Of a stretch of 64,000 bases of DNA, positions 1 to 24,200 are shown piece by piece. Origin of the DNA: Candidatus Omnitrophota bacterium (GTDB lineage Bacteria; Omnitrophota; Gorgyraeia; Gygaellales; Profunditerraquicolaceae). How positions within the stretch are numbered: position 1 is the stretch's first letter; each line of letters opens with the position of its first letter. The position numbers and the translations under genes are program-made. The notes under the pieces were generated by a model that saw only the letters and a list, made by a program, of their open reading frames with translations, did no database searches and was not told where the DNA came from. Location: assembly GCA_003598025.1 (NCBI GenBank), contig QZKH01000005.1:4682-68681 (forward strand), read 5' to 3'.

Positions 1-260
1 GTCCAGCCAGAGCAAAAGCCACAAGGAAAAGTTTTTATTTGGCCGCAAAAGAAAGCGTTTTCCATATACGCTTTAAGTATTTTTGGCATATCAACCCGTT
101 TATTAATTATCGGTGTTACTTTTTCCAGCATGCCTTTTATTGCTCTATTGGCTTCAGTAAGCTTGATACTCAATACTATATATTATGTACGTTTAATCCG
201 TATTTATAACAAAGAATATACAAATTTAAATAGAAATTCCAGTAGCGATAGCGGGAAATC
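1..260 (+). other. Hydrophobic helix segment (AFSIYALSIFGISTRLLIIGVTFSSMPFIALLASVSLILNTIYYV), probably the C-terminal transmembrane end of the preceding module, followed by the first SSSP linker at about 262-275
   Basis: Direct translation of frame 1. Two consecutive hydrophobic stretches of about 20 aa are followed by KSSSPISNSPFENNSPSLPP. Confidence 0.4.
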
Positions 261-3200
261 TTCTAGCCCTATATCTAATTCGCCATTCGAGAATAATAGT
301 CCATCGCTGCCGCCATTGGGAGGGCCTATTTTGAGCCATGATATGAGCGAGTATTGGATCCTTGATAAGGAGAAGACAGAAAAAGATTTTATTGTTTTGG
401 GGTTTGGTTTGAAAAAAGGAGTGTTAAATTTAGGTAACGCCGAAGTTATTATTACGCCATGGGCAGTAAGCATGAACTCCTGTTCGCTATATTCAGTTTA
501 CCGAAGCCAGAAACTTGCTCAAGAGATAGTCGTTCGTGCATATCAAGGAGCCTTACATATTGCGCGTAGGCTATGGTTGGACCCACCGCTTGTACATCGT
601 TTCTTCGGGCTTTCTTATACAGAATACATTAGGTTTCAAAATGACGAAGGTGCAGTTGAACCTGAATGGGCAGAATATCCTACTTATCCAATATTTAAGC
701 ACATAGGGTTATCCTATGGGCAAGATTTCCACGAGATATACGGTAACGCTGATATTATTAATCTTGATACTATTTTTGAGCAAAAGATTGGATTCTATCA
801 TCAGGGCGGGAATATGTATATGCGCACAGATGAATTTGAGCGCGTAGTTGAAGCATCTTGGAGGCAATGGTTTTATATCGATAGGGCTCATGCTGTGTAT
901 GGTAATAAGGTTGACCAGTATCCCTATCTTTCTACTTGGCCGGCACCTATACTGTTAATAAACGCAAGAGAAAAGGCAAAAGACCATAGAAACCATTTCT
1001 TAAAAGATAACGAGGATGATTTTATGCGGTTGCTTCCTGGTTCAGTTGATTTTAGTTCTATCTCCTCAGATATTCTGCATAGTCATTTAATGAGAGAAGA
1101 GTGGAAGATTGAAAAACATGCAATCTCGGAAGAGAGGAGGATATCGGCAGAAGGAGATTTCTATTATGGCGTTATATATATTGGCTCTATAAGTATGGTT
1201 ATTACTGATAAAGCAGTAGAATTTTATGTTTGTTCTGATATACATAGAGGGACTAATGCGGTAGGCGCGGGCAGAGAGATGATCACGCGGGCTTTCATTA
1301 CAAGTTATTTTATTGGTAAATACTTAGGTTTGAATCCAAAATGGGCGGTTGCCTATTATACTGTAGGCGAGAATGATGAGCGCGAGGAAGATAAGAATCC
1401 AGAATATCTCAACAGGCTTATTCGGCCTTGGTATGAGTTATTTTCCGAGCTCGGTTTTATGGTAAAAAACTTAAATGATAATTTAGCCAGAAGCTTTTTT
1501 GGAGATTCTGTAAGAAGGGGTCAATATTGGTATCGCGGCCTGGAAGATTTTATATACGATGCAGCAAACAATTGGATAGTTTGGTTTTATACAAACAAAA
1601 TAAGAGCTTTTGAGAGAAAGACCGGAAGTACTTCTATCAGCCATGATACGACGATGTCTGATTCTGATGTTGCTACTATTAGGAATGAGCTGGATGAGAA
1701 TTTAAGAAGAGTGTTGCGTAGGTTAAATTTTGTCGAAGCAAATACTGTATCGTTGTTCTCAAGTGGGAGTTCTCCCTGTGTTTCTAATCATCCTGAGCGA
1801 AGTGGAGGATCTATTCATCGTCGAAATTATTCGGCCTTCGGTATTAGAATGATATTAAATTCGGAGCTTCGCAGTAATTCTGTTATAAATATAAGACCAT
1901 TGCTTAATCCACAGGGTAGTTCACCTTCCGTGCCCCGTTGCAAGATATTTTGTATTCGGTTATATTCTACCTTCCGTGGCTGGTGGAGAATATTTCCAAT
2001 TTTGCAACGGGGCGTGATTGGTGGGGAGCATTTACTCTCTTTACAGAGAGGGCGTTTCGGTACGCAAGTATGGCTGCCCGCCTACCGGGCAGGCAGGCCT
2101 GCCTGCCGGACCATCGGCTTCGCCGAGAGGCGAGTAGGTAGGGTGGAGGACAATTGCGAGTTCTCAGCGGGTTCATCAATTTCATCATCGCCAATATCCG
2201 GATTAAGAATGCATGTATGGTTGGAGTGGCGTGCTTTCCTTGCCGGACTCCCTAAAGTTAAGCTAATCAGTAATGACCCCGTGTCTATGGAAATTGCCTT
2301 ACGCAGGTTAAATCACGGAGAGTACCCTGATCCATGCGGAATTGTTACTACATTCTCAAATCATCTTAAAATAGCAGCTTTAAAGTTAGCAGCGATAGAT
2401 AGTGATGAATCAAGAGATATATTAAGAGACCTTCAGGAGAGCATTGATTTCTTTAACATTATTTCAGATACAGCTGCGGATATAAAAAACATAAGCGCAA
2501 GGTTTATACATTACCGCCGTTATTCGCGCAGGTATTTACCACAGTTATGGAATGAGCAGGCAAGATTAATTCGGAATTTAATCAAATGTACTCTAGCCTA
2601 TCTTGAGAATAATAGAGAATTAACCATGCAGGTTTTTAATTTAACCGGTTTTTCTAATGAGATTCCGGTATTAGAAAGGGCGTTGTTGTACTTTCAGGAT
2701 ACCTTAGCACTGGCCCAAGGCCAGGCAATGCCGATAGAATGTAACGTGGAAGGCTTAAAGGCACAATTTAAAGACTTAGTTTCGGAGTATTCAGGTAGAT
2801 GTGATAAGTTGAAGCTGAGATTTAGGACTTACCATGGTGCGCGCCCTTTATTCATAAACGTCCCGAGAGTAATAGCTGTTGTTGCTAACTTGATTGAAAA
2901 TGCGCTGGATGCAAGAGTTGAGGGAAGGCCGTCTAAAATAGGGATCACTGTTAGTATGGATTATAAAAATGGCATTATAAGAATCGCCTGTAAGGATAAC
3001 GGCAACGGGATGGATAAATATGCCCTTACCCGGGCAAAGCACAGGGATTTTACCACTAAGGCCGAAGGCACAGGCTTAGGCCTAGCTGAGGCTCTGAATG
3101 TAACAGAAAAAGCACATAACGGCAAGCTTATTATCAGGTCGTTATTCGGAAGGTGGACGAAGGTAATATTAGTTTTGCGTTCATCAGATCCACTTGATTC

Positions 3201-6200
3201 TATATTACATTCTTCGGATGATGAATTTTCTAATGACTATGAGTTAGGGGAAGCTTCTTCGCCGATATCCTATATGGATAGAGAGCAGAAGGCAGGGATG
3301 CAGAAAGAAATTAATGATACCGGTGAGAGAATAAGCGTAATTCTAAAAGCCATTGGTATCAATAAGGTGTTATTAACGCTTCAAAGCGAGTTTGAGCATT
3401 GGAGGATAATTGGCTGGCTGCATGATTTAGGACTAATGCATACAGATGAGGTTATAAATCTGGCAACGATAGATTATCATTCCGATACTTACGATGGCCT
3501 TGATTTAGCATCAGGAAATTGGGTAAGGTTTTTAATAACCAGGTATCATCCTAATATAAGATTATTTTGGTTGAGAGATAAATTTCACAGCGAAGGAAGA
3601 GAGTCTGATAGTTTCTTCTCTAAAGTTTGGGCGTTGCCATCTGAATGGGAATATGGTTGGGAGGGTTATGTGACCCTTGATCTGGATTATTTTATGCCAG
3701 TGGCTGCTATTTCTGAGGAGGCATTAAAGGCAGAAGTAAATAATCTTGTGGATGCCTGGGTAAATAATCGGATAAGAATTATTGGCTTGCATATAGATAG
3801 AGGCGAAATAAGGCTGGAGCATACTCTATCGGCCTTAATATTTTTGGCAGAGGCGATTGAAAGAAATGCTAAAGAATTATCTCTGGCACATACAGTTTCT
3901 TCCCCTGTAACTATACTTGCCTCAAGCAAGACAGCCAAAGATTATTTATTTACTTCTCCCGGGCAATTCGGCAACTTAACCCAGGAATTAGTAAGGAACC
4001 AGGGCCTTCATGGCGGTAAGGGGAATATCTTCTCTAATCATAGAGGAGTAACTCCTCCGGGTACAAAAGTAGTAGATTATAATGGCCGGTCATTCCAGAT
4101 TGACGGCGTAAATCTTTACAGGACACCCCGTATAATACCCCCTACTTCAAATAAGAGCGATTCCAAGCTTTCCTTAGAGCGCTTTCTTGAGTTGATTACT
4201 TATAGCCCGTATCAATTATACGTCTGGGTGCATAATAAACCGCGAATGGCAGTTGCTCAGTGTTTGACCGATAAGACTATCCTTGAATTATCCGAAGGTT
4301 CAGTTGCTATGCAGCAGGCAACCGGTTCAACCAATGAAGAGATAAAGATATTATTAGGTAAGATAGGGTTTCAGGCAGATATAGATTGGTGGGATTTCCT
4401 TGATGATTATGTTTTCTGGGTTAAATTCGGCAAGCGCCTGTTAGCAGAGAGAAGAGAAGCTTCTTATTACAGGATACACCGTTCAGCAGTTATTGACCCT
4501 CTTGGTTTTGACCCTGCCACTATCATTGCCCCAAGGCTTGACGTAGAGATAGATAAATATCTTAACGCAGGGTTTAATCTTGAGATGGCAGCAGCAATGG
4601 CCGGCTATGAAGCAGTCCAGGTATTCTCTAAGGAACTCAGCGAGCGCCTAGGCCCGGATAAGACCGCAGTCATTGTGCTCAATGAAGGGATCGGTATGGA
4701 AGGCCATGTCGGTTTTAGCCACAGCGTATTAGTATTTGTTTATACGGATCCGGCTGCCGCTGAGATATTCCTTAATGCAATTCGTAAAAATACAAGGATA
4801 GACAGGGACCGCATATTCCGGTTTGGCCTGCGCTTATACGGACTTATCTTGCGTTACAACCGAATCCTTGATGCATGGTTTAGTTTATATGGCAAGAATA
4901 TGCATAGCCAGCTTCTACGTCCTGATTTCATGGCGCCGATAATGTTTGCTACCGCAATAAATAACTTCTGGGACTTCCTTAAAGACGGTGAAAAAGATAT
5001 CAACCCTTCAATCAAAATTCTCATTGAAGAATATTCACTTTTCAGATTTGATGATTTCTTGCGTTTCTGCGCTAACCCTACATATAAGGCAAGGGCAAGG
5101 ATAGAAGAAGCCTTTGGTTCTTGGGATGCATTTTATGAAGAGCTAATGCGTGTAATTGAAATACTTGAGCGTGTTCCTGAATTCGGTCCTACTCAAGGGC
5201 CTTTAAGCGCCCTGTCCCGCGGAAGAGGTAAAGTTATCCTTGTTGCCAACGGGCCGCACAAATACAGAGTTGCAATCAATTCCATGTTCGCAGAATCAAG
5301 CGCAGAGCATCCTTCAGGTACGAGCGGGCAGGTTGGCGATCGCGTGGTTATAATCACCGAAGATATACTTGAGACTCTGGCCAAGAATGACCTTCCACTT
5401 TACAGAGAGTCTATGCCTTATATATGGCACCTTGATTTTGATTTCCCGAAAGAGTTAGATCCTGATTTGGCGGTGGCTCAGTGGAAAGCTGCCGGTTACC
5501 ATGAGAAGATATATGAGCAGGCCCCGCTTAAGGAGGCGAGAACAAGTAAAACAATAGCCATACCGAATCCCTCAGAGATAGCAGCTTTTGGGCATAGCTC
5601 ATCAAGTCCTATTGAATCCAATGCCCTTATTTTTGACATTATTGAATTAATAGAAGATGCTGAATCGGAATCAGCTACTAAGTATGATTGGGCAGGCAGG
5701 CTTTATGAAGAATATAAATCAAGAAGCCAAGAACCCGGGTTTGATGTTGCATTCAAGGAAGCCATGCATATCCTTTTATTCCATAAGAGCAGTGATGTGC
5801 GTATGGGTGTTGCTTGGATTATTTCGCACGATGAATTTCTAGGCCCTGTACCTCATCCTTCTGTAAGCGGTTATTCTGATAGATCTGTAATCAACGTTAT
5901 GATGCATTGCCCTTCAACGGAGACGCCGCGTATGATTGTTGATTTCTTTAATAGCGTAGACTCGAATGAAAAAAGAGATTGGATTGTTGACCAGCTGATA
6001 AGCGCAACAAGCATAAGCCAGAACGACGGGGTAAGAGAAAGGATCCTTGATACGATAATAAATATATTTGAATTCAAATTATATCCTTTAAATACATCTG
6101 TGCATGATGGCCATCTTTATGAGGCTTTAAGCGCGGGGCGCTTTCATCCTCAAGAAGAAGGGAAAGTCGCAGTTACAAAATATGACCCATTTAATATAGA

Positions 6201-9200
6201 ATTAAGGCATAAGGTAATAAATGGTTATACCCCAAGGGTCTATGTAAATGCGCTTACTGCAAATGGAGCAAAAGTGAGGCTTCCAAAGAATGCCGCTGTT
6301 GTCCAGGAGGGCAAGACAAAAGTTTATTCTTGGAAAATAGATACTTACCGATTTGAAGATTATATAGACGTTGAATTAATCCTGCTTGATTCTTCCGGTA
6401 AATTCAGGCTGATAATAGAAAACAGGCACTTTTTTTATATTGATAAGATACCTCCTGTTAGTATACCTGAACAGAAGGTCGATTATGCGCCATTCTCTCA
6501 ATTGACCGGTAAAAATGTGCTCGTATGCAGCATGGAGGCGACTTTACTTATGCATTGGCTTTATGGTGCCATGGGTGGAGGCTTGGGTGTATTAATGGGG
6601 AGTTTTTTAAGGGCTCTGCGTTATTGCGGAGCCACATTTTATTTTCCTTTGCTTGTTTATCGTGTCGGGCCGCAACAGGAAATAGCTTCAGGTAAGGCAA
6701 CAATGAATCCAAAATCAAAGTTAGATTATTCTGTAATACTGAATGGCTTTGAAGATGATTTAGAGAAATGGGAAAGAATTGATTCTAAGGAAATATCGCT
6801 TAATCTACAAGGCAGAGCTTTCAAGACAAATGTAATATTAATGCGCCTGACAGTTAAGGAGATAGAAGTTGTTTCATATGTTCCTTTTATAGAGATACCT
6901 GATGGCATTGCTGATCGTTTATATCCGGGAGATTCAGCCTCTTTGGAAAGATTCATACAGGCATCTTTCTATTCAAGAGCGGTATTGAAGACAATGGAGG
7001 CGTTTGATATCACCCCGGATATTATTCAGGTACATGAATCTTTTCCAGCCGTATCTTTAGTGCCTGATCTCTTCTATAATCCAGAGTTTAATGCTGACCA
7101 GCGTTTTGAAAGAGGCAGGCAAAATCTGGTAGGATTTGCACATACAGTAGTCCCGCAAGCTTTTCCGTTCTATGAGCCGTATTTCATAGATATGGTTCTG
7201 GGTATGAATGTAGATCAGTATGAAGGTTTACTGACGGATAGGCTAGTAGACGGTAGGCCGCGCAGGTCTTATGATTCATTTTATGCGCTAAGCTTAAAAG
7301 CTAAATGCGTCGGGACTGTAGGGCTTGAACACCGTGGAGTTATGGCTAATACTTTTCCTGAATTTAAGAAGAAATATTTCGCAATAGAGGATTCAATATG
7401 GCCATTTTTCTGGATGTTAAAAGCACAGATCGCAGATGGCGGACAAGTCTTGCCTCAGAGTGTGCTTTGGGAGCAAAAAGAGGCAGCTGAAGCAGAGATG
7501 GTAGAATATATAAAGTTTATCTTTGGAATTGAATTAGAGGCTGGTAGGCCTACTATAGTACAAGCCAGAAGGTTTGCAGATTTTAAGTGGAATACGTTTG
7601 TAACTGGTTTGCCTGGTTTCTCGGACTTAACAGGTATATATTATTTATGTGCTGATCCAGCAGAAGGAGGGTTAGGCTTTAATTTTATTGTTGGCGGCAA
7701 AGCGCATGAAAGAGACAAGCTTTGCCAGGACTGGATTGAAAGATTAAGGAATTTTGCTAAAGATGAAAGTCTTAAAGGCAGGTATGCATTTTTGAATTGG
7801 ACTACCGAAGACTCTCAGGTCGTGATAAGAGGAGCAAAAGCAAGCCTTCAAACTTCAATACCTCCTTATGAGGCAGCAGGCATGAAAGATAAGAAAGATT
7901 TAATTTGCGGGAACATTCCTGTATCAAGTTATACCGGAGGGCCTGTCCAGCAACTAACAAACATCATGTCGCATGGGTTAAGAGGCAACGGCTATCTATT
8001 TGAACCATTTTCTCCGGCAGAGTTGCAAAAAGCCTTAGAAGATCTTTCGGCACGTTTCTATGCGCATATTTTTAGCCAGAAAGGCTTATCTTTCGAAGAA
8101 ATACAGAATTTGCCTAATAAGAAATGGGTAGAGTTGGTTCTTAAATATATGCAGGAAAAGCCCGATGGCATTGTCGACATAATGCATAACGCAACCCGTA
8201 TGCTCCCTGTTGCTGATAGCCGTACTGCAGCAATGAAATTTGCTTTAGTTTATGCAAAGTTGCTCGGAGAGCAGCTTGATTATTCTCAATACCCGAGTTT
8301 TATGACCAGGATGCTTGATAGGTTTAATATGAGGATTGAGAATATCAATGGGGCTTCTTCGCCTTTAGAAGGAGATAGTAAATTTAATATCGATAGAGAG
8401 ATAATTAAGATTTGGAAAACTTTGAGGGGTGGGAAGATAGTTGAAGCAGGCAGGATGCTGGATGAGCTTAAAAGGAGAAATGATAGTTTTCATTTCTGGT
8501 TGATGACTGATTTTGAAAGGTTCGTTGAGCAGCCGCAAGGCGCGCATGAAGAAAATACAATAATTGCTACTCGTTTTACACGCGATGGAGCATGGTTACT
8601 TAATTCTATTATCGGGGTTATTGAAAAGATGCAGGAAGATTTAAGAATTCTTGTTTATCGTGATAATGTTGAATTATCCAGCCCGGGAAAGTTTGCAGCA
8701 TCTGAGATAATTTCAAATATGTGGAAATTTGCACACTCAGGAGTTTTTGTTGCTTACTATTTATTAGGCATGGACGGTAATATTTCAGGGTTAAGGCTTA
8801 TTGGCTTAGATAAAGGGCCCGGGATCAAAGACATAGAGTCTGCTTTAAGGTTAGGGTTCTCAACATACGGTTCGAATGGTAAGGGTTTGTATATTTTGAG
8901 TAATATCACAAGCGCACAATTTACTGATTTTAAGATTGAATCAGTTGCCGGAGAGGGTATCATGGTTTCAGTTGATATATCAGTACCCGGATCATCAAGC
9001 CCTGTTACCAGCTTAGGATCTCTGCCCAGACTAATAAAGTTGAATCCGGATATTTCGGCGAGCAGGTTGTTTGTTGATGTCCACAGATTAAGCCGTATAG
9101 GTTTGATGGGATATGCTTTGATACGCGCTCCTCCGGCAGCAATCTATTTTGTTCCCGCATTATTGAGCCAACCGCAAGCACGTAATATTAGCATCTCCTC

Positions 9201-12200
9201 CAGCCCATTAACTAGCAGGGACGGTTCTCAAACTAAAGCAGAAGCGTCCCCTATAGAAAGGGACAGTTCTCTCATGATTTCAGAACCGTCCCTTCCTAGA
9301 AAGAGTTCCAGCCCGATAGACCCAGAGAGATTACCATCAATCACAGTTAATAGATTAATTTCACATGAGATAAACTCGGATATAACCGATTGGTTGAGGA
9401 ATATCTTCTCATCATACGGAATATTTATAAAATACGGAATATCATATCTTGAAATAGACAGAATTCACATAGTAGGTTTAAACCGAGAGCCCGGAAGGGA
9501 GATTCTCCTGGTTGATCTTTTCACCGGGGAGCGCATTCTCCGTTTCCATGTTGTTTTCTATAAATCAGGGTATAACCTTGATTATGGTATTGATGACGGG
9601 TTTGAGAGGATAAGCACCAGGCTTATAGATATGCACAGAAATTTTAAGTTGATGAAATATTCCGAAGAATTAGCCGTATCGGGCATAGATACAGCCGAAA
9701 TCGTCAGATTGAATAATGAAGCATTCAGGGAGTGGATTGCCGGGCAAGAGTTTACATATTTCAACGGAGGCGGAGATGCTGCAGTCTATATAAATGATGA
9801 ACGCACTTTAGTGGTAAAAAATGTGCATGATTATAATAAGGAATTACTCAATATGCCTGCGCCTTTTAAGGGATACCTTCTTGCAGCAGAAAGATTAGGC
9901 CATTTAGTCGTGCGCTATGTGACACTGGAAGATTTGGTTGTTAAGGTCAGGAATAAAGACGGAGTGGTTGAAGAGAAACTGTTTAAGAAAGCAGTAATAC
10001 AAAAATTCGTTTACGTGTTTTTCAAAGAAGGAGTCTTTGATTCTTCTTTAGGCAAAAGAAGGTGTGAAGGTATATTGGCCGATACTATTGGGCAGGGCGA
10101 TATGCAAACAGCGAAAATGCTGATTGATGAATTCTTATCCAGTATAAGGGCGATTATGGCAAGAGGAATCGCTGACTGGGACATTAAAGCCGAGAATTAC
10201 GGATATGACCCTTCCGTGGGTTATGTCTGTTCTCTGGATATGGGTAAATTTATTGAAGCTTATAACCTGGATTTTCGTATGGCCAGAGTTTTTATAAGAA
10301 ACCTTCAGAGGACAAGAAATGAGATATATTCCTGGACTAAGGATGTTTTAGGGGAGAGAGAGGCAGTTGAGTTGCGCGATCATTTTACGGAAAGGGCAAA
10401 GGAAGTTTTTAGAGTCAGAAGCGATTTTACCTTTGACATAACAAGAAGTGTCGATGATCTTGAAGCAGAGAGCGAGTTGGAAGAAGATATTAAAGATATG
10501 TCTGATTACGAATTGAAAGAATGCCTTCCGGTCTGTTATACCGGTTTACCTGATATAAGAAGGATTGCCGTAAGAAATATCGCCGGGTACTTAAGGGGGT
10601 TAGGCAGGGCTCATAGAGGGTTAGCATTTGTATTAGCAAAGATTGGCTTTAACGAGAACGCAGCTACGTATGCAATGTTTCAGAATCTGGAGGTAAGATT
10701 TGTAGATTCTAAGATCCTGTATTTGCCAATTTATGACAATGATACTTATTGCGGTGTAAAGTTAAGAATGCTTGATAATGTTGCAACCGTTGAGGATATA
10801 CATGAGAGAAGGATTTGGGATAGGCTCAATGTAAGGCGGTATACAGAGGTGCTTAAAGAGGCAGTTAAGACGATAATAAGGTTTTATTATCCACAACAGG
10901 TCGTTTATAACACATTAGCAAGCGAATTCAGTCTTAAGATGGTAGACGTAGCTGACAGGCTTGATACGGCAAATCAGCTTGGCCGGATTAGCGGCGAGCT
11001 GGTGAATACTGAGCGCAGAAAAATATTGCTTAGTAATCTGTTTGGTATAACTGATACAAGTAATTTGGGCCCAAGGGTAAGATTAGCTTTTGATAACTTG
11101 AGGGAGAGAAGAAGGTACCCCTTTGATGTAGAATTACGGGATATATATGTCCGGGAAGAGGCAGGCAGAGTGCATACAGAACTCGTTGCTTTTGGTATGA
11201 CTACCAGAAAATGCCTTGAAATAGAGATGTTTTCTGACCTTATTAACCGCCTGAAAATACCAGAGAATATAGTTTTCCTTGCCATTGAGGAAGAATTAGG
11301 CCAGAGGGGAGGAGCAATATTCCTTGAGAAAGTTTATTTCCAGGGTACCCACGATGATCCTATTGTTCAGTCTGTATCAAGGCAGTTAAATTCTCTGTAT
11401 TCAAGGCAAAGAATGGGTATAGTTTCAGCGCTATTAGTAAAAATGGGATTAATTCCAGCTGAGCCAGTGGAGGTAACCAAGGCCAAAAGGCTGCAAAGAG
11501 AAAGATTAGCTGGTTTGCTTGAGCATTTAAAGAAGGTTAACGGAGGTAAAAATGGGAATGGTAAAACTTCGTCAAGCCCGATAAATAGTGTTATAAATAT
11601 TTTAGTTGTCAGGAAAGCGTTTTCTAAGTTGTTTGTATTATGGCCGTTGCGTGTAATTAAAGGATTTTTGTCTACCTTCTCCTCCTTCGCCCAGCATTTA
11701 TCATGCAGTGCTCCGGAGGACAAGATTACAGGTGCGCCTGAGTGCCGAAACAAAATGTTCTACCTTCCGTGGCTGGTGGGGAGCATTTACCTTCTTTTAC
11801 AAGAAGGTGTTTCGGCGCTCAGGCGTGGCTGCCTGCCTACCCGACCATCGGCTTCGCCTAGAGGCGAGCAGGCAGGGTGGGAGCGAAAACCTCGTGCAAC
11901 CGCGATATTTGCAACCACAATAGGCAGCCTCATAGCTGAAAAAGCAGGAGTTTCTCTTGATGCGCAATATATAGGTAAAGGATTATGGTTGCCTGTAGTG
12001 TTAGAGCGCATGATAGAGGGTCATAACATATTAAATGGTTGTAGATGTCCTTTATGCACTTCAAGCTCTAGCCCGATAAACTCCAGTATCAGGCTTGATG
12101 ATACCACAAAAGGGAAAATCTGCCGCCTTATGCGCCTTTATAAACAGAGTAAGATCACTATTCAAGAATTATCATTCGGGTTAAACAGGCTCACAGATAT

Positions 12201-15200
12201 AAGGAGGTTAACGGCTTATTTCTTAAGCGGGATACAACTGGCAAACCAGCTTGGTGATTGGCGCTCAAGAGATACAATGGAGCAAGTTATCTTTATGACT
12301 AACATACAGGCCGGTGTTGGTAAAGGAGTGCATTATTTCGTAAGGCTTTTACATTCCGAATATAAAGAGGATATCGCATCAGCCCGCCGGGTATTTAAAA
12401 AATGGATGAAGCAAGGGGGCTGGATTACTACAGAGGCTGTAAGGGCATTGACCGATAAAGGAACCCGCGACAGCCACGAGCATACAAGGGATGCTTGTTT
12501 TAGGCTTTTAGTCGAACTGGTCAAAGATGATGCTGGCGCATACGGCCTTATCAGCGCTTATGGCGATTATTTGCACTATGAAACAATGAGGCTAAATAGC
12601 GAGCAGGATAGAATAAAGTTTATACTTGATGCGATTATTGCGGTAGAAAAAGAAGGCATTAGGAACATACTTGAAGAAATTGGAAAAGGGCAGGTTTTAC
12701 TGGATGCTTTAAAGGAATATAAAACAAAGAGTGGCGGTGTTGAGTCAATATCTTCTCCTGTGCCGCAGAAAGAAGCTGCCGGTTCCTATCCAAGAGTAGC
12801 TATTTGGGATATGGATGAGACTCTGGGTTATTATGATTCTGCAATTAACGATGTTGTATTAAGAAGGGATATTTTTCTTGCGCTGGGCTGGTTAGGAAAA
12901 ACAGGTGTAATGAATGTGCTTGCTACATCTGCGCCGGAGAAACACATGAATAGGTTTTTAGACAAAAGCGGGTTAAGGGGCTCTTTTAGCTTGCTTTATT
13001 CCAGGAAAAAAATTATGCCGTTTAAAGGGGTTAAATATTACTCCGAAATATTCACAGAGTGTGGTTATCCCGGCATAGAGTCATCTGATCAAGTAAAGAG
13101 GGAAGCAGCCAGAAGGTCTATCGTTATAGGAGATAACCCGGGATTGGATATCGGATGTGATGTTATCGTAGATGACTTGGGTCCTGTTTTTATTCATCTT
13201 GATGCGCTTAGTAAGACCGTTCCATTGATGCAGGCTTTTGGGACAGATTTAATCAGCGTTTGTGATGTGCTCTTAAGGGAAGGTCGTGGATTTTTCGCAG
13301 ATGGGTTCAACAGTATTTTAAGGAAAGTCTTGAGTGAGCATTATTGGACTTGGAGGGTTTTCCATAATCCTACTTATACTACTGATCATGTCCAATTTAA
13401 GCTTAGCTACGAAAAATTAGAAGGCGATCACATTCCGGTTATCTCTGCAATTAATAGAATAGGGCATGAGAATAATACGGACCAGGCCAGCAATAATAGC
13501 TCAAGCCCGGTTTCCGATGGGCATCCACAGGAATATGTTATAAATCTCTGGGAGCGTTTATTGGATACGGACAAATCTAAACGAATGACAAAGCCAGAAG
13601 CCATGTCTGAATTAATAAGGCTGATCAAGAAAGATTTTAATGTCAATATTGGAGAAGAAGGTGTTAGCTATGACTCCGAAGAGTCAAGACAGCGGATATT
13701 TACGGATATATACAAGGCTGATTTTCCTGAAGCAACCAGTGTTGCTTTTATGCCATATGCTATTCTCCTTGGCTATCTTGAGCAGCCTGAAAGATTACTG
13801 CTTAAATTCTTTGACAGCACGGTCGGAGCAAGACAGCCTTCAAGCATAAGCTTATTGGCAGAGCGTTCTATTAGTCAGATTGTCGGCAGTTCCGTCCATT
13901 TTCATAGCCATAAGTTATTATGGGAAGGAAGAGAGCCAGTTTATTCAAGAGCAGCCGCTAATATTACAAAAGAAGAAGATATCGAGCTTTCCTGCGATAA
14001 ACTAGCTATGCAGAAAATACATGGGGCAATCGAAATCATCAAAAGAAGAGTGGCGCATTTGGGAAAACAGAGTTATGAAGAAGCCTTATCAAATGCCTTA
14101 ACGCATATGACTATTATAATGCTTGGCGGGATAAGGCTTGTTTTCGTAGATTTTGACAACATGATCGTACGCCCTATACATGCCGGCAGGAGAAGGCAGG
14201 TGTTGTATTTACCTGAAGGGTTCTTATCAGATTTTGATTTAGATTCGGATGGTGATATGAATGAACTCGCAGAATATATTTTCCATACAATGCTCTGGTT
14301 GAATACTTACCGTAAGATAGCAGAAAAGAAGAGGCGTGGGAATATGAGGCTTGCGCTTAACAATATCGTAAGGACCTTTACGGAAGATGGAGGCTGGTTG
14401 GGGTTAGTCGAGGAAAGCCAGATAAAGAACAGATTATTATATCTGATGCGTGAGACTGCAGTTGATATATCCAGGGAGGTGGCTCATGCAATACATATTC
14501 ATGACGAATGCCTTACCAGGTTTGACCAGATGGTAAACAGCTTAGAGTTTGGTAAAAGGAGCGTATATGATAAAACTTTCAGAGAATTCGCTAATTCTTT
14601 AAGAAGAAGGTATGCGAGAGCCGGATTTTATTGTGAATTATTAGGCGCAGATAAAATTGCCGAGACTTGCTATGAGCGCATGAGGGAATCAGTAAGGCTG
14701 ATACAGCGCTTTGAGTTAGGTGTAAATCCGGTACAGTTACAATACAATTTGACTATGTTTTATCTTAAGAGGGGGATGTTTAGCGAATTCTTAAGGGAGC
14801 TTGATACATTGTTAACCGGGAAAGATTATCCGGAAGCTGATATTTCGGTGAACGTTTTTGATGCGGCCAGGCAGGTAGTCCTTGTTATGCCGCTTTTAGT
14901 ATCCGGAATGATTGAATTCCTTGAGAAAGAGATTGATTACACATTTACTTATTATAGATCTCAAGTTAAAACCAGCCAGGAGATCCAGCGGTTAAAAGAA
15001 ATACAGGAGAAGGCCAGAGCGATGATTTCTGATTTCCATAAATATAGCAAGGCTGTCGAGGAGTATCAGGCAAGGCACCCTAACAAAGAAGCGACATCAT
15101 CTCCTTTGACGAATTCAAATGAGTTTAATAAAGCCTTTACGGCAATATCAAAACTAGACCCTGGCCAGTGGTTAGGAGAAAGATTAATATCTGCTGTTCT

Positions 15201-18200
15201 TTCCTGCAATAATAAACAACCGCCTTTCGTAATTAAGATTTCTAATGCCGATGATGTAAGGATCCATAGCCATCTTGCCAAAAGATGCCAGGAGAGGCCC
15301 GAGCTTGATCACGAAATAATTGTGCTTGAGGTAGTAAATGTTGAAAGCAGGGCAAGGGCAATTATACGTCTGATGGCCGGGACACGTTCTGATATTGAGG
15401 TATTATTCAGCGACATCCCGGACCATAATGAAGAAAGAGCAAGAAGGCTATTTTTGGATCTTGAGTGTGCTTTTGATTTTAATACAGAGGTTATAGGCAT
15501 TGAGAAATTAATCGGGAGTGAAGCACAGAATATGCTTACTGTGCTTAAAGCTCTATTTGCGGGAGTAGGTTTTGGCCGGGCCAAAGTTATGTTTAGGGTG
15601 CAAGAATTCAGGGATATGGTCCGTTTTCCTAAGGTATTCAATGGGAGAGCTGAAGAAAGCTTGTCTAAGGATTTTCTTGATAGGGCAGCCAGGGTCATGG
15701 CATTGATAGGAAATACAGGATATGCGGAATTGGATGAATTAGAAGGCAGGAGCCTGATTGAGCGTATTTGGTATAGGTTTATAGGCTTTGGTGTCTTAAG
15801 GGTAAGATTAGATAAACTCGCAAGAGTAGATATTAAACAAAGAGCAGCGCAGTGTTTGGCGTTATTGAGCGATGCACAAATAAGCGAAGCCGAGCGTAAT
15901 TCGTTGAACTCCAGCATTGAGGCAGAAAGGAGAAAGCAGCAGGAAATAGACGGACAGATTGCTGATATTCCAGGTAAGCTGAGCTTACTTCAGGCTGAGG
16001 TTGAACGCATCAATGCGGAATTAGCAGAAGAATCAGGTCATTCAGATACGTATAAAGCTAAAGCCGCGGAGTTACATGAGATAAATACCCGGGGTGTTAA
16101 TACTAAGAGAGAAATAGAAGGGCTAGAAGCTTCTTTGGAAAGAACTTTGGCTGGTTTAAGCCCTGCAGACAGAGAGTTATTTGATAAGGTTGCCAGATTT
16201 AAAGCGAATGTTTCTGATTTAGAAACCAGGGTACAAAGAGGAGCAGAAAATAAGGCAGAATTGGAATCAAGAGCCGTTAGGATGAAAGAAGCAGTCACTC
16301 ATTATGAGGCACAACTTAAGCAGGCGGCAGGAGAGGAAGCAGTTTCTCAGATAAGAGACATCGAGCAGCGTATATCAGAACTACAGCCAGCTTATACTAG
16401 ACTTGGTAAAAGGTATCAGGCTTTAAGATTAGAATGCCAGCAGATTGAGCAGGAAGAGGTTTCCCGGAAGGAACAATTACAGAGAAGGGTACTTGATCTA
16501 CAGAAAGAAATTGAAAGGTCTTCCGGGGACAGGCGGAAATTAGAAGAAAATCGAGCTTCTACTCAAGAGGCTTTAGAAGTACTTTTGAAACAATCCGTAG
16601 CGCTTGATGCCAAGATAAGTTCTTATCGGGATAAAATTAACCAGTTTGAGAGTGATAATGCGCTAATGGGCTATGTGCGCCTTAAGCAGGAACTCCAGGT
16701 GATAGAAACGCGTTATGCCAGCCAGCCACAAACTGGGAGGCGCTCGCGTTTCACGGAGTTAAGAAAAAAAGCACAGGACCCGGAAAAGAATTTGAGCCAA
16801 CAAGAGCGCGCAGAATTGGATCAGATTATTGCTGATCGGCAGAAAGAAGCAGAGCTTCTATCCGGGATAAAATCCTATTATTCGGAGGCTGACGTTGTAA
16901 CAAAAGTCGTTGATGACTATTTTGATAATCCGGACAAAATCATGATGTTCTTTGATGCGGGATTGGAGGCTGCAGACAGACCTGAGCTGAAAGATTTAAA
17001 AGAGCAGGCCAAGATTTTAAGGGCAGAGTTGTTGGCTGCAACCGCAGAGCGGGAGCAGTTGCAGAATAGATTATCTGAGATTACAAAGCGGATCTTGGAG
17101 TTATCTACTTTATCTAGGGTAGTCGCAGATGTTGAAGCAGTAATTACCCGTTTATTCAGGCAGGGCAATCAGGCTATCCCTAGTTTAGAATATACTAAAA
17201 GTGATGAAGCAAGCGCTTTTTCGCACGCATCAAGATTATTTGGCAAGCTGATAAGCGCACATAAATTGGTATTGCTCGGTTATTTGGAAGAGCCAAAAGA
17301 TACTCCCAGCTCAAGCCCTATCTCTGTTGACGAGGTTAGGTCAGCATTAGATAACGGCCGCATTCGCAAGACAACCATGCTTTTAAGAGAAACCGACCCC
17401 AAGGATCAATCGTTTGATGCCTTAAGAGAACGCTTAGCGAATAGAAAGAAAGAAAACAGGCGTGTTCTGGAATGGGTACAGAGGATGAGGGAGTTTAGAA
17501 ATGACGGCAGGTTGCATTTGGCGATAAGAAATGCCAAAAGAATACTTGAGTTGAGTCCGGATCATCCGGAAGCAAATGAAGTAGCGGCTATAAGAGGAGA
17601 ATTAAGGAGTCTGGACTTAACCGGGATGAATAATGTTTATGTAAGAGGTTTTCTTTACCGCAGGCTTGACGAGTTCCGCGGTTACCTTCATGAGAAAGGC
17701 TTAAAATTTACCAAGATAATGCTTGTTGAAATGAAAACGAAAATTGAAATCCGCCTTACTTTAAAAAACGGCAGGATTTTGACTTATTCGATAGCCCTTG
17801 ATAACAAAGGCAAGCCCAAAGGAACCTTGCCTAACCAAAGAAGTGCGGACCTACTTTATATCTTACTTATCCATGGCCAGATTCCGTCTATAGTGAATGC
17901 GGATAATCCGTATTTGACGAGGTCATACGGCAAGAATCGCCAGATCCAGCTGGATTTTGTTGATTTCTTCAAAGTCGTAGGCAACAAAGAATTAGCTGTA
18001 TTTACGAAATTTGCCGAGGGAAAAGTTGAGGTATATATAAGTGATGAAGACGAAATGGGCTTGTACGTTTCGATAATGACCAAGAACGGTCTACCGGATG
18101 TTAAGGGTGCTTCCAAGAAACAAAGGCACTATATTGTATTGAATGTTTTGGTTGAGCAGGAAGCTGTATCCAGCGAAGGAATCAGTCTTAAAGACTATAA

Positions 18201-21200
18201 AGCTGATTGGTTGTTAGAGAGAGCAAGAGTTGCTTTAGAAGCTAATGATTTCAATACCGCAAGGCAGAATATACGGGCAGTTTTTGATTTCTATCCTGGA
18301 TCTAAGAAGGCAGCTGAATTACTTAAAGAATACGAAATTGAGAAAAGCATGTATTACCACCGGAAAATAATGGCAGAAAAAATGCTGGTCGGTGAACTTA
18401 AGCCATGGCGTGAGCGTGTAATAGATGACGAAGGCAATGTTTATATTTACCTCCATCAGGATAATGGCAGGCAAACCCAGGGGATCGCGCTTAATTTTGC
18501 TCTTATACCAGACTTGTCAGTTGGTTCAACATTGCAAATAGTGCCTATTGTTTCCCAGGAAGCGTCTTATAGCCGAGTTTCAGTATTAGTTTATAAGGAT
18601 ATGACTGCAGAAGAAATTGCAATAGGGGTATCTCCATTAAGAACCTGGAGCTACGATCTTGAATCTGATAACCTTAGAATAATAGGTGATGGCACGGATC
18701 TGCATATGAAACTGAGAGAAATTGACTCTGCCAAGTTATCCGTAGCTAATACTATGGCTGCAATAGGCAGGATAAGGGGTGAAAATTTTAATGGGGTTTA
18801 TCGGAGACTTTCCGGGCAGGTAGAACAGGTATTATTGCTAATATCAAATGATGCTTCCAAAGAGACAGCTTGTGCATATATGTTCGGCCTCATAGATAAA
18901 GCAAAAAGGAGGTACTCTTCCAGCAGGGTATTGCATGTTCTTCTGGATAGCATATTATATGACCATTTCCTTTATGATGAAGACTCCATTAGAGAACCCG
19001 AAGAAGAACAGCTGAAGGCGCTAAGCAAGAAGCAAATGAAAGAGTTAATGGAGTTTGGCGTCAGCTCTTCTCCCATTGATAATAAAGGCGAATTTTCAAC
19101 CCGGGTTACTGTAATTGCAGATGCTGTAAAGGCCTGGTCTAAAGAAATGTTAAGTATATTCTACTGGGTTTGTTTTGAGCATGCCGGATTGTTATATTCG
19201 GCCTTTTCGGTTAGTAAGCTTGTCCAGGTTAGTGGCGCAACTTTAAGGGTCATAAGGTCGGATTTGGGTAAGCCCTATGTCCATTATTATGTGGTTATAT
19301 CGTGGCCTGAATCTAGCGGTTATTTAGTTGATATTTTTCCTGAAGGTAACAGCAGATTAGATCATCTTAACCACGAAGAAGATAAAAGAAGGTTATTTAC
19401 AGAAAACGGAGCATTGGTCATTCCTCTATCTGAATCTGAAATAATAGAAGAGGGTTTTGGCAGGCCCTCTGATATGGAGATAGTCTATTCTTTAAATGAT
19501 TCAGAAGAGTCTATTGACCCGGAGTTTATTATTTATTTGGGTGAGGCCAGAAGATCGCTGGGAGACTTATGGAGTTTTAACAGAATAGAAGATGAGCATA
19601 TCGGAAGGAGTATCCTTCGTGAAACAGGGTTATCTCATGAGATAGGAAGGAGAAAATTCGTATCAAGCCCTATTATGCCTATTGGAGGAGTATCTTATGA
19701 AGGAGCCGGCCATAACCGCCCTATAGACCTTGGAAATAATTTGTATAGGCTTGTTAATATTAAGAAGCCAAGAGAAATAGTGGTTACATTAGAAAGGTCA
19801 AAAGATGAGGATGTAATCAATCTTAATGAAGCAGTTATTTCGGCTGTTGTAGCATATTTATCCGGGTTGATTGAGGAAGATGTTAGGTCCCGCAGGCTCG
19901 GTGCCGAATTGACTGCAAGGATCAGGTTGCAGAAAGAAAGAATAGAAAAGTTGCGTTCAATACAGCCCGTTTCAGGGTCCGCCCCTTCTTTGACAGCTAC
20001 TGAAACCGGTAAATCTTCATTTAGCATGGTTTTAAATAGTGAGATTACTAAAAGGAGAGGCAGAAATACCTCTTCTCCTATTAATCTGGATGAAAGGCTA
20101 AACAGCCGGATAGTAGACATGCTTTCTGCGGGATTGAGGCCCGAGTCTACACTTGTTATTACGCATGTAGGCAGGCATCCAGATTATGGCGAGGTGGCAG
20201 ATAGGATCATATCCGGCGTGGATAAGCTTTACCAAAACCAGAAAATAGATAGTAGGTTAGTATTATTTTCAAATACGCTTACTTCTCCCTACCCGGGAGG
20301 TTATCATTCCGATGGAGGTGTATTGGCTCCTGATGCTAAAATAGAAGTAAGCGGATCAGGCGACGTATTCGTCATTGCCGGATCAACCGTGGGCGCATGC
20401 CATTTAATAACTTACCAGGAGATAGTAGATATTGTTGCCTCAAGGCACAATACAAGGGCTGTGATTTTTATACCTTTGGAGGCAACGGACAGGACAATCA
20501 ATCCTACCGCAACGGATGAAGCCTATTCCATGTATCTTGCATCAAATATTAGTATAGGCGGATATGAGGTCTTTGATTTTGTTAATCAGCATTTTATCCC
20601 AGGCCCGGGGCAGACACCGGAAATAATATTAGTATGGGTAAAAACATCTCAGGAGGCAATAGAATGGATAGGCCGGATTAAAGAATTATCACAATCGATT
20701 GAACGGGCATCTGTTCTCCTGGGCGCAGTTTCTCAATTTAAGCATGATGTCAATAACCGTCTGACAGCCATAGTGGGCAATATTGATATGGATTTGCTTG
20801 ATGCCGGTATTCAGGAGTCATCTATGAAGGGTAAGCTCAAGCAATTGATAGATAGTGTTCGGGTTTCATTTATAACTATCCCTAAAGGGAATACGCAAAT
20901 TGTTGACATTACGCAGGCAGTATCCATTATTTGGCTATGCCAGTGTTTTATAAGCGAACTTCTGGCCTGGTCGAAAGATACTGATGAAGATGCGATCTTT
21001 GAGGGATTACCATTAAGAAAAGACCAGTTTTCTCCCAGACGTTTTGGTTATGTACGCAGAGAAATAGGAGTCATTAAGAAGATGATAGATGTGCTTAAGC
21101 GCGCCGGTGAAAGCAGCCCTTCCATCATAAATAGAGAAAGAATTGATATAGGCAGGATTATTAAAGAAGAGCTTGAACATATTGAAGGCATGAGGAAAAT

Positions 21201-24200
21201 AATCTCTGAATCCGAGCCAGGGTTGTTTGTTTGGGGTGATGAACTGTTATTAAGGAATATTTTACTGAATTTATTTGTTAATGCCAGACAGGCAATGGCT
21301 TCTTTGATAGAAGTGAAGGTAGGCAGGGTAGAGGCTTCCGGAGAGATAGATATAACTATTCAAGATAACGGCCCCGGGATACCGGAAGAAGATATTCCTC
21401 TTGTATTTGATTTATTTTTTACCACTAAGGTTGACGGTAGCGGCATGGGGTTATATATGGCTAAGAAAGCAACAGAGGCAATGGGTGGAAAAATTTCAGT
21501 TCAGTCTGACCATGGCTCAAGATTCAACATCCGTTTAAACGCAGCATCTTCTCCTTTGGAAAGATTTGGATTTAGTGCGCATGCAATCAACGGCCCCCCG
21601 GCTTTATTTACCGGTTCTGTTCTAAACCCGCATCAAGCAATTCATTCCAGGGGGGCAGTTCTCCGATTACCCGGAGAAACGGTCCTGTCTTCAAGCCCGG
21701 TTAAATATAAAATCGTGGTACATGAATTTACAAGACTTAATGATAATCAGCCTCTTCTTACTCCCAGAGACGGAGTCTATTGGGAAAAGGGAGGGGTTTT
21801 GAATCCTGCTGTTGTAATACGCGATGTAAAAGGGCTAGATGGCAATATCCATTTTATTTATCGCGCTGATGAGGGCGGTTTGCATCCAAGCGGCAGCCTT
21901 GGCTATGCCAGATTTAAGTTTGATGAAGCGCAAAGAAACCTTATCTTGGTTGACAGGTGGGATAAGCCGATAATGTCATGCCATGACCACCAGTGGTGGG
22001 AAGACCCCAGGGCATTTATTTTAAGCGGGGCTTTATATGTCAGCTCTACGCATTGCCAGATCTTTCCAAACAATAACATAGTTACCGAAGGTTGCATCTC
22101 ACACGAAATGAATTTCAATCACGCAGTAAGAAGCCGAAATTTCAGATGGTTAAACAGGTACGTAATAACAGGCAATAAGAAGAAATTTGATAAAGATGTA
22201 GTCCTTTGCCCTCGGAAAGTAAATATACACGGCAGCCAATATTGGGCTGCTTATAATCGTCCATGGCCGGATATAGGGGTAATAGTTTCTCCAAGCGCCT
22301 TTGGCCCGTGGTTCAGGTTCAAGGAACGGGTAATGTCTCCCAGGCAAGGGGATTCTCATATAGGCGCAGGCTCAAATATGGTAGAAATTAAATTTAATCA
22401 TCAACATATGTATTTATTCTTCATACATAGTGTCTTTTATAGGGATAAGGCTGCTGATACCAGGACATATTACGGGAAAGCCGTTCTTGCCCAGGCTGAC
22501 AGGCCATGGGAAATAATTGATGAAACTGATGGCATCGTATATCCGGAATTAGAATGGGAGAAAAATGGCCTTGGCGGTAAATTAGACTGTATTTTTATTA
22601 CCAGCTTTGCTCCTACCTACAGGAGAGGAGCGCGCGTAAAGGGGATAGTTGGCTATGGGGCGGCTGATAAGTATGTAGGTGCTGCCTATGTTGATTTAGA
22701 AATTATCAGGGACGGTTCTCAAAACAAGGCAGAACCGTCCCTGAATGAAAATGCTTCTAGTCCGCTTACTATAGATGATATACAGCGATATTCGGATTCT
22801 GCCGTGAAATGGAGAACCGCAAAATCTATAAGGTATATCGGCGGGTTATTCAGGGATTCATTTTCACCGAAAAGGAGAGAAATAATCCATACGGCCCTTC
22901 TTTCCTTGCTGAAAAATGAGCATCGCGTAGCTTTAAATGAAGTGTTAAAAATAATAGGCATGGAGCAGCAAGATAGAGAGGTGATTTTGGCTGGCCACGA
23001 GTATGGAGTGCATGCAGTCAGGGATATAATCATGAGCCGTGAATTCAGCATTGAGATAAGATTGCGTGCGTTAATGTTTATCTCTGCTTGGTTAAAGGAT
23101 TCAGAGGATAATTTTAGGGAAGAAGCGGTGAACAGTTTTTCGGTTGTTGAATTAAAAGATTTCCTCAACCGTTTAAGAAATAAAAGCATGCTTAAGAGAA
23201 AGCTGGAATCCGGGTTGCCGCTAAGATTTTCTGATGATGTATTAAGGCTGGGTTATGCGGCTGTAGCGCTATTTATTTACCATAAAGGAGCGGGTATTTC
23301 CCTGGCTACACTTTTTGAAATACTGCATAGGATTTTTATAAACGCCAGGATTTCTCCCGGGTATGAAGATGCTAACTCAGGGTTTAATTTCGGAGGCAGG
23401 TTTGCAAGAAAACATTCAGGAGGAGTAGCAATCGGGACCTGCGCTCATGAAATCATGCATAATATATTGTCAATCGAGACAAAACTGGATTCATATGAGA
23501 ATAAAGATGTAGCATCAATTCATGAGTTTATGAGCGATGTAATGGCTTTTGCTTTCTATAGATGGGTTTATTGGCCTATGGAGATAGCAAAAGAACTGGA
23601 ATCTTTCCATTTTGTTGAGCACCTTAATAGCTGCCCTAATTTTATAGCCGCTGAACAGCACCAGGCTGCCCGTGCCCAGCTAAAGATAATTATTGATGAG
23701 TGCTCCGGATACGAGAATGTTGATTGGCCGCTTCTTTTAACAGCAGGGATTACCGTTTTAAGAGGCTGGATAGGCGGAAGCTTTAGTCTTTTTACAGAAC
23801 GAGTTTTACACACATATTTTTTAAATCTGCGGCAAGCCCCCGGGGATAGGCCTGGAGAAGGTCCCGGTTATGGCCTAGTGACAGAAAACTTGTTAGGTTT
23901 GCCTGCCGGAGCCAGCAGTAAAGTTGCCACCAAAATCTTATTGTTGCCTAATTCAGGAGTACGCCGTATCCTGCAAGTTTATAGCATTGGAGCATCATCT
24001 CCCCTGGATTCATCAAATATCATATTGGAAATAGATTCTAGGGCACTCTGCGCTACTTACGGCGGGACTATAAAAGATGTCCCGCAGGCATTCTGGGATT
24101 GGCTTAGTTCTTTAGGTGTAGGCGTAATATGGTTTAAAGGCGTGTGGAGGAAAAGCCCTCTTTCACACCGATTGATGAGGATCTGGGGCAGAAGGCACGG

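Follow-up and report, generated by a model that had tools for sequence, protein, structure and literature searches.

The stretch of DNA analysed here (the window, 64,000 nt, positions 4,682 to 68,681 of contig QZKH01000005.1 in assembly GCA_003598025.1 of a Candidatus Omnitrophota bacterium) is read through by a single giant open reading frame (ORF) without any stop codon, while each of the five other frames contains 695-2044 stops over the whole window. Pfam matches along the giant ORF comprise HATPase_c, alpha-amylase, GH77, PHP, HD, XRE-type HTH, cation efflux, GNAT, methyltransferase and EamA, and the gene with its heterogeneous modules resembles the Archaeovorin giant proteins that have been described from Omnitrophota (bioRxiv 10.1101/2023.11.21.568195). 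The tripeptide SSP occurs 63 times in the 21,333-aa product, 58 times in the form SSP[ILV], compared to 4.5 and 1.05 occurrences in shuffled sequences, and the SSP[ILV] copies follow each other along the protein at a median distance of 298 aa. The serines of the motif are encoded by a mixture of TCN and AGY codons, hence, SSP is conserved at the protein level. It represents a candidate processing or cleavage site or a delimiter of modules; the cleavage points of the Omnitrophota giant proteins are unknown according to the same preprint (bioRxiv 10.1101/2023.11.21.568195). Beside such SSP junctions, at 9.2 kb and 22.7 kb, the ORF carries short palindromic hairpins. These hairpins are very probably in-frame members of a family of repetitive extragenic palindromic (REP) sequences and REP doublets (REPINs), which is dispersed by REP-associated tyrosine transposases (RAYTs) and usually resides between genes, and the peptide that they share in the linkers of the giant gene would be a by-product.

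The first-pass annotation of the window had described three 33-nt hairpin units with perfect or near-perfect stems of 10-11 bp and with loops that are free to differ in each copy. All three inverted repeats are present and their stems are of the described kind. Copy 1 (9218-9250) has a 10-bp stem with one G.G mismatch, copy 2, which ends at 9292 (9260-9292), has a 10-bp stem with one A.C mismatch, and the perfect stem of copy 3 (22709-22741) extends to 14 bp at 22706-22744. That the units are separate from each other and their loops free was not confirmed. Copies 1 and 3 have 8 of 11 loop bases in common, are identical at 29 of 33 positions overall, and both loops fit the family-wide loop consensus AACTCAAAGCA. 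The apparent divergence of copy 2 is mainly due to its inverted orientation as the partner of copy 1, and the 3' arm of REP unit 2 is perfectly complementary to the 5' arm of REP unit 1. The two units at 9.2 kb are indeed adjacent, but they are the two halves of one composite, nested REPIN of about 77 nt, in which a spacer joins a forward REP to an inverted one, while the site at 22.7 kb is a REP singlet (Table 1). In comparison to shuffled controls the three hairpins are clearly more stable than expected, with RNA fold z-scores of -3.8, -3.2 and -7.5 for copies 1, 2 and 3. The singlet folds at -25.9 kcal/mol as RNA and its z-score is about -7.2 to -7.5 when treated as single-stranded DNA of either strand. 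The doublet reaches its lowest free energy in the nested form (-37.7 kcal/mol), with z-scores of -5.7 for RNA and of -5.3 to -5.6 for DNA. Moreover, the 12-mer of the arms is found 11 times in the window when up to two mismatches are allowed; the mean in shuffled sequences is 1.68 and none of 100 shuffles reached 11. All three copies share one frame of the giant ORF.

Table 1. Coordinates of the giant ORF, of the two REP sites and of the neighbouring SSP junctions in the window (nt positions; aa positions refer to the giant ORF).
Feature	Position	Strand	Basis or remark
Open reading frame, 21,333 codons, open at both window ends	1..63999	+	no stop codon in frame +0
SSP junction motif (aa 3067-3069), 3 codons upstream of REPIN	9199..9207	+	
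REPIN (REP doublet), in-frame, encodes RDGSQTKAEASPIERDSSLMISEPSL	9215..9295	+ (forward vs ORF)	alignment, covariance model, HMM, nested fold
REP unit 1, forward: AGGGACGGTTCTC-AAACTAAAGCA-GAAGCGTCCC	9217..9250	+	29/33 identical to REP1 family consensus
Inter-REP spacer CTATAGAAA, 9 nt	9251..9259	+	alignment columns 37-45
REP unit 2, inverted copy: GGGACAGTTCTC-TCATGATTTCA-GAACCGTCCC	9260..9292	-	matches REP downstream of RAYT genes
SSP junction motif (aa 3103-3105), 4 codons downstream of REPIN	9307..9315	+	
REP singlet, in-frame ((S)RDGSQNKAEPSL), perfect 14-bp stem, 11-nt loop	22706..22744	+	covariance model, HMM, fold
SSP junction motif (aa 7586-7588), 4 codons downstream of REP singlet	22756..22764	+	

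The copies do not stem from one local duplication, as the annotation had already proposed. The core pattern of the repeat (GGGACGGTTCTC...GAGAACCGTCCC) was found at 240 distinct sites in the fetched public contigs, nearly all of them outside long ORFs and many in Omnitrophota. In an exact-pattern scan, for which each species was represented by one genome, at least 120 loci were obtained, compared to about 2 matches that would be expected in random DNA by our own estimate, and a scan of metagenomes with a stricter pattern gave 103 loci. Among the matches listed in the exact-pattern scan, about 26 belong to Omnitrophota or Omnitrophota-like metagenome-assembled genomes (MAGs), of which at least 12 are represented, and others form REP-like arrays in Oribacterium, Neobacillus and Micropruina. 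Perfect hairpins are common and a few tens of cross-phylum matches could have arisen by chance and then been amplified within genomes, however, the family is judged to be real because of its concentration in Omnitrophota and its association with RAYT genes. In the Omnitrophota-type MAGs the hairpin is intergenic and usually lies a few tens of bases past the end of an ORF. Family members exist as singlets or as doublets with the same composition as the one in the window. The canonical intergenic element is a doublet of about 75 nt (AGGGACGGTTCTC-AACTCAAAGCA-GAACCGTCCC-CTAAAAA-GGGACAGTTTACCTTTGGTTT-GAGAACCGTCCCT), which is situated 2-16 nt past a stop codon and 10-60 nt ahead of the next ribosome-binding site (RBS) and ATG. 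Its outer arms represent 12-13-bp terminal inverted repeats, every copy starts with (A)GGGAC at its 5' end, and the spacer measures 5-9 nt in intergenic copies compared to 9 nt in the window. Relative to flanking genes, 22 intergenic copies are co-oriented versus 8 that are not, and the window REPIN, which is forward with respect to the ORF, shows the commoner orientation. REPs typically reach tens to hundreds of copies per genome; the copy number of the present family is at least 11 in the MAG LacPavin_0419_WC90_MAG_41_16 and higher in Oribacterium NK2B42, both values being lower bounds, and a 20-kb stretch around one RAYT gene contained its two flanking REPs only. No consistent direct repeat that could indicate a target-site duplication, which together with terminal inverted repeats characterizes MITEs (transposase-deleted insertion sequences), is visible in the flanks of 41 copies; the flanks of the window doublet (TCCAGCCC...TCCAGCCC) are the SSP motif itself.

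The membership of the window sites is supported by sequence similarity as well as by profile models. A blastn comparison aligned 9216-9293 of the window with an intergenic tandem pair in Omnitrophica UBA6233 at 81% identity over 79 nt, and the complete doublet (9215-9295) can be aligned over its full length to 16 intergenic doublets. A hidden Markov model (HMM) built exclusively from these 16 intergenic sequences recognized the window doublet with 68.7 bits (E 5.5e-19, model positions 2-77 of 79) and the singlet with 33.8 bits (E 4e-8), the latter over model positions 2-39, which correspond to REP1. With a covariance model, the doublet, which is itself part of that model, scored 84.1 bits and the singlet 38.3 bits (E 3e-7). 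This model recovered the two window sites exactly (9215-9295 and 22706-22744) and no other site at E<=10. Rfam gave no match in the window at gathering thresholds, and in five related loci the hairpins remained without a match at E<=0.1. Two further candidates in the window were rejected. The hairpin at 33055, which precedes a PFLSLTREVPP cassette and had been regarded as a related, weaker form, has a z-score of +0.07, and was missed by the covariance model (E<=10) and by the HMM; its match to a loose regular expression on the minus strand does not suffice for membership. The second one, at 21652-21685, has a z-score of -1.1 and was also not recovered by the models.

The consensus fold that RNAalifold derived from 18 family members is one nested hairpin. 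Of the 216 cells of its 12-bp outer stem 214 are paired, and there is partial pairing between the two loops. When the doublet is read as two separate hairpins instead, the second one contains a universal A.C mismatch and its pairing drops to 82.9%. Across the family no stem pair has changed on both sides. The stems are invariant without such two-sided changes, hence, they are conserved in their sequence and not merely in their structure. This pattern fits a sequence-specific mobile repeat recognized by a transposase rather than a structure maintained by compensatory changes, and the suggestion that selection acts on the secondary structure inside the gene is not supported.

RAYTs are enzymes of the HUH/Y1 type that act on hairpins in single-stranded DNA. 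When the ORFs of the fetched loci were screened for HUH/Y1 motifs, all candidate ORFs matched the Pfam family Y1_Tnp, and those at loci L135, L146 and L047 were assigned to NCBIfam NF047646, 'REP-associated tyrosine transposase', with 92.2, 85.2 and 81.3 bits (cut-off 80). In at least six contigs the RAYT gene is flanked by the REP1 half upstream and the REP2 half downstream, namely at L135, L146, L224, L225, L227/228 and L229/230 (gene at 10001-10474 of L224 and at 1501-1977 of L225, L227, L228, L229 and L230). For example, the L146 gene has a hairpin of the REP1 type, with the canonical loop AACTCAAAGGA, on one side and one of the REP2 type (GGGGACAGTTTACCTTTATTTTGAGAACCGTCCCT) on the other. 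The flanks of the RAYT genes are REP1 and REP2, therefore, the doublet equals the two ends of a REP-rayt-REP unit. A RAYT gene between two inverted REPs is the defining architecture of RAYT/REP systems and REPINs (PMC2817692, PMC3116915, PMC5581495). Among the roles that had been listed for the hairpins the first one, REP-like elements, is the appropriate one. An NCBI protein entry, 'transposase [Candidatus Omnitrophota bacterium]', is identical to the product of the L146 gene; at E<=1e-20 this protein has 1201 relatives, and all organism names attached to them are Candidatus Omnitrophota or Omnitrophica. In at least four different genomes, UBA6233 included, the RAYT locus is conserved between mnmG/gidA and ribonucleotide reductase, sometimes with an intervening phosphoglycerate mutase gene. 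Hence, the Omnitrophota RAYT looks like a single-copy, vertically inherited transposase, which is the behaviour reported for RAYTs (PMC5581495). Inside the window no RAYT gene was detected by tblastn. Collectively, the family of the window hairpins is a REP/REPIN family typical of Omnitrophota.

It should be mentioned that RAYTs of about 40% identity are also present in Firmicutes (L114, L001 and L008), where they are flanked by the same 12-mer core GGGACGGTTCTC, and these account for the cross-phylum matches of the pattern scans. Loci combining the core with a RAYT gene in this group are L008 (780-1790, Oribacterium NK2B42), L114, L001 and L047, and in Clostridiales UBA3678 (L001) the RAYT gene is bordered by arrays of 4-6 arms, which are spaced by 21 nt and run in opposite orientations. 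A REP core shared across phyla is unusual, given that REPs have in general been described as specific to a species.

A view on how such an element enters a giant gene is provided by a second giant ORF, L033, which is located on contig JACQXK010000004.1 of the Omnitrophota MAG GCA_016208765.1. It contains 8 kb of uninterrupted ORF, likewise with SSP[ILV] junctions, and an in-frame REPIN stands directly after one of them (SSPII-RDGSQTRLEASPGGTLSSAVQNRP). The same contig carries a RAYT gene (L224). The REP upstream of this gene agrees with one half of the L033 REPIN at 30/33 positions and the REP downstream with the other half at 31/33, and the agreement extends to the unusual loop AAACACGGTTA of that REPIN and to the TTCAGAACC variant. 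The latter (TGA->TCA) was considered as an adaptation removing a stop codon, but this idea was rejected because the same variant flanks the L224 RAYT gene and is thus a variant of the lineage. A linker cassette SSP-GTAGGCGCGGTGGTG (SSPVGAVV) is found at three junctions of L033, one of which is split by exactly 84 nt consisting of ATAATT, the REPIN and ACAAA. The residue after SSP is still I at the interrupted junction and the junction motif is preserved. Judged from this footprint, the L033 REPIN can be regarded as an in-frame insertion into a pre-existing linker.

This footprint also bears on the idea that the giant gene grew by fusion of neighbouring genes and that its REPs and REPINs are fossil spacers, i.e. 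former intergenic regions that are now read through. Several modules resemble stand-alone genes (histidine-kinase ATPase, GH77, amylase, HTH regulators, CDF/EamA transporters, methyltransferase), REPINs are normally found exactly between co-directional genes, and the window REPs are placed exactly between modules. However, the L033 REPIN splits a linker cassette of which two further junctions hold an unbroken copy, and this speaks for an insertion into an already existing linker. Moreover, the junctions hold a uniform SSP[ILV] peptide and no degraded remnants of stop codons, RBS or start codons, and the copies are too well preserved for ancient relics. An origin as fossil spacers is therefore regarded as very unlikely.

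Clear cases of the family inside ORFs are rare. Among the 240 sites, the clear cases in AT-rich DNA (about 40% G+C) comprise the window sites, L033 and the short contig L134, the last without an SSP motif nearby. A search of the window for linkers that are paralogous to the REP-bearing ones but lack the element gave no convincing match, and two protein searches, covering a collection of 5.8 billion proteins, returned zero homologues of the modules flanking the REP sites (aa 2893-3600 and 7234-7998). Large parts of the giant protein are orphan sequence, for example the modules at 8677-10800 and 21700-23994 of the window. The third hairpin had been reported to flank a GH130 module, but no Pfam match to GH130 exists near 22.7 kb.

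The in-frame position raises the question whether the encoded peptide is the conserved entity, i.e. whether RDGSQxKAE[PA]S is a linker peptide and its palindromic coding sequence incidental. The window inserts are translated as 26 aa (doublet) and 12 aa (singlet) with the common form RDGS...EPS, and the in-ORF copies (the three of the window, L033 and L134) are all read in the same frame into similar peptides. However, the shared frame is explained by the content of stop codons. The RDGS frame is stop-free in 15 of the 16 intergenic doublets, while any other frame is stop-free in at most 8 of all 18 aligned sequences; therefore, copies that survive in ORFs are expected in that frame. All copies inside ORFs employ the same codons in their arms, and elsewhere this sequence is abundant and overwhelmingly non-coding, so that the conservation resides at the nucleotide and not at the peptide level, as the annotation had correctly recognized. 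The arms of the in-ORF copies display no synonymous variation though nonsynonymous changes occur (G->S, P->A), in contrast to the true peptide motif, SSP, with its mixed serine codons. Furthermore, the length of the spacer sets the reading frame of REP unit 2, and with spacers of 9 nt in the window and 5 nt in L033 this unit is read in different frames, which argues against a constraint on the peptide. Finally, no RDGSQxKAE family exists at the protein level, the 'peptide' being also spelled in the intergenic copies, and the occurrences reach far beyond the three copies of the window. The explanation as a peptide motif is effectively refuted.

Another possibility is that the hairpins, whatever their origin, were exapted and are now kept for slowing ribosomes where two modules meet, for protecting mRNA 3' ends or as recombination points that a RAYT can cleave when modules are gained or lost. 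REPs in some operons protect processed mRNA 3' ends. The high stability of the hairpins would be in agreement with such a role, and so would their little decayed stems and the preferential co-orientation of intergenic copies with genes, which makes their transcription probable. Moreover, every site is positioned within 4 codons of a module junction; the distance to SSP is at most 4 aa for both window sites and the L033 site, while only 4.4% of the window protein is within 6 aa of SSP. However, this proximity is equally well explained by the tolerance of linkers for insertions, and in the 64-kb window the element occurs in just 2 of the 63 junction linkers, which does not support the proposal that it signals module boundaries, pausing or processing. 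In addition, covariation is absent at every pair, and the downstream modules of a cleaved giant mRNA would have no start site. Neither is there a terminator signature. The stems are followed by TTCCTAGAAAG and TGAATGAAAATG without any T-tract, a terminator scan called neither hairpin on the plus strand (14 calls in the region, in line with the 11.7 of shuffled sequences), and intrinsic termination was accordingly rejected. Taken together, an exapted structure is improbable, and the same low probability is given to the more limited claim that the stable hairpins locally slow ribosomes or serve as recombination points.

The REP/REPIN interpretation agrees in most respects with the REP/REPIN-RAYT systems that have been described in Escherichia, Pseudomonas and Stenotrophomonas (PMC2817692, PMC3116915, PMC5581495). 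The elements are short imperfect palindromes of about 20-40 nt (units of 33 nt here), in which the stem sequence is invariant and the loop varies more, inverted doublets fold into one long hairpin, a Y1/HUH transposase gene lies between two inverted REPs (here in related genomes) at a conserved chromosomal position, and the copies are overwhelmingly extragenic just downstream of genes. In contrast to these systems the host phylum is Omnitrophota, the same 12-mer core accompanies the RAYTs of Firmicutes mentioned above, and two copies reside inside an ORF and are translated. The core (A)GGGACGGTTCTC also differs from gammaproteobacterial REPs by the absence of the GT(A/G)G head, however, this head is a feature of one REP clade and not of the whole class (PMC2817692). 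While REP/REPIN-RAYT systems in Proteobacteria and in-frame palindromes in Rickettsia are already known, no earlier description of REPs or of a REP/REPIN-RAYT system in Omnitrophota was found in the literature searched, and the translated position is the unusual aspect of the present case. Palindromic repeats that are read in frame within protein genes are known as Rickettsia palindromic elements (RPEs), which are about 100-150 bp long (PMC10969869), and as the MITE-like ERIC, BOX and Coxiella QMITE elements (PMC10969869, PMC5896051). Similar to RPEs, the window doublet and singlet and the copies in L033 and L134 are in-frame mobile palindromes that add a family-specific, tolerated peptide. 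However, RPEs are confined to Rickettsia and no RAYT partner of them is known, whereas the elements here measure 33-77 nt, are for the most part intergenic and are inserted into ORFs only where these are giant genes, in their linkers. Hence, the likeness is best taken as an analogy of outcome and not as family membership.

Fixed 10-12-mers in inverted pairs are also known from DNA uptake sequences (DUS) of Neisseria and uptake signal sequences (USS) of Haemophilus, where they form hairpins after stop codons, with occasional copies in ORFs in tolerated frames. The T-tract that directly follows the G+C-rich stem of intrinsic terminators is missing here, and the flanked RAYT gene gives a different and sufficient explanation.

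With regard to the mechanism, the copies probably arrived in the way in which REPINs are also dispersed between genes, either by the action of the RAYT on hairpins in single-stranded DNA or by recombination among existing copies, and they would persist because the junction linkers tolerate a short hydrophilic insert in the one stop-free frame. The conserved stems would then reflect recognition by the transposase or the young age of the copies and not a function in the giant mRNA, and the encoded peptide would travel as a passenger. Some observations weigh against this interpretation. The link between RAYT and REP was seen in related genomes, and the copy number per genome is a lower bound (no fewer than 11 in one MAG). 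All four sites inside ORFs are read in a single frame, and the copies in the window and in L033 have some derived bases in common (the loop start AAAC, GAAGCG and TTCAGAAC), hence, some of the copies in ORFs could derive from a single captured cassette that was spread by intragenic recombination instead of separate insertions. The near-intact stems are compatible with recent arrival but also with maintenance for a function.

On this account the conserved-stem pattern marks a mobile DNA repeat and neither a peptide nor a boundary signal, and the hairpins should not be taken for functional punctuation of the giant gene. Furthermore, the entry of a usually intergenic repeat into a giant ORF only a few codons from SSP[ILV] suggests that the linkers are insertion-tolerant and 'intergenic-like'. 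The placement of the REPs thereby gives independent support to the view that SSP[ILV] separates autonomous modules or cleavage products. For practical purposes, REP copies might be useful presence/absence markers for alleles of giant genes, and they are a potential source of ambiguity in assemblies. More speculatively, REP hairpins at junctions may act as breakpoints for the gain, loss or exchange of modules via single-strand cleavage or recombination beside SSP, to which we assign little probability. In that case, a domesticated transposase system would help to build and remodel the largest bacterial genes, and the restriction of REPs to junction linkers would show that linkers act like intergenic space in a polyprotein.

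Some additional repeats were noticed. On the minus strand of L159 (3040-3073) a REP singlet read in another frame supplies the last 11 codons and the TAA stop of a 683-codon frame (...GTVLKIKQNRP*), which means that REP copies can also remodel the C-termini of ordinary genes. A second in-frame palindromic family in the giant genes is GC-rich, has a 15-bp stem (CGTGCCCCGTTGCAA...TTGCAACGGGGCGTG) with a fold z-score of -4.2, and is present at 1915-2165 and 11755-11880 of the window, duplicated at 77-90% identity, as well as at 41-272 of L033, where units of 46 nt and 38 nt are arranged in tandem; this family may represent a further mobile or structured repeat within giant genes. The linker cassette (R)PFL(S/P)LTREVPP occurs three times beside SSP (33056-33118, 46649-46711 and 55967-56029) with up to 89% identical DNA; it does not belong to the REP family according to the covariance model or the HMM and has no significant fold. 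A further linker cassette, KG(N/D)GSI..(D/N)GASSP, is found twice just before SSP (58100-58143 and 61505-61548, 84% DNA identity), and a 15-nt tandem repeat (AAGGCGATTCCTGGC) with about 3.9 copies is situated in the ORF at 38276-38333.

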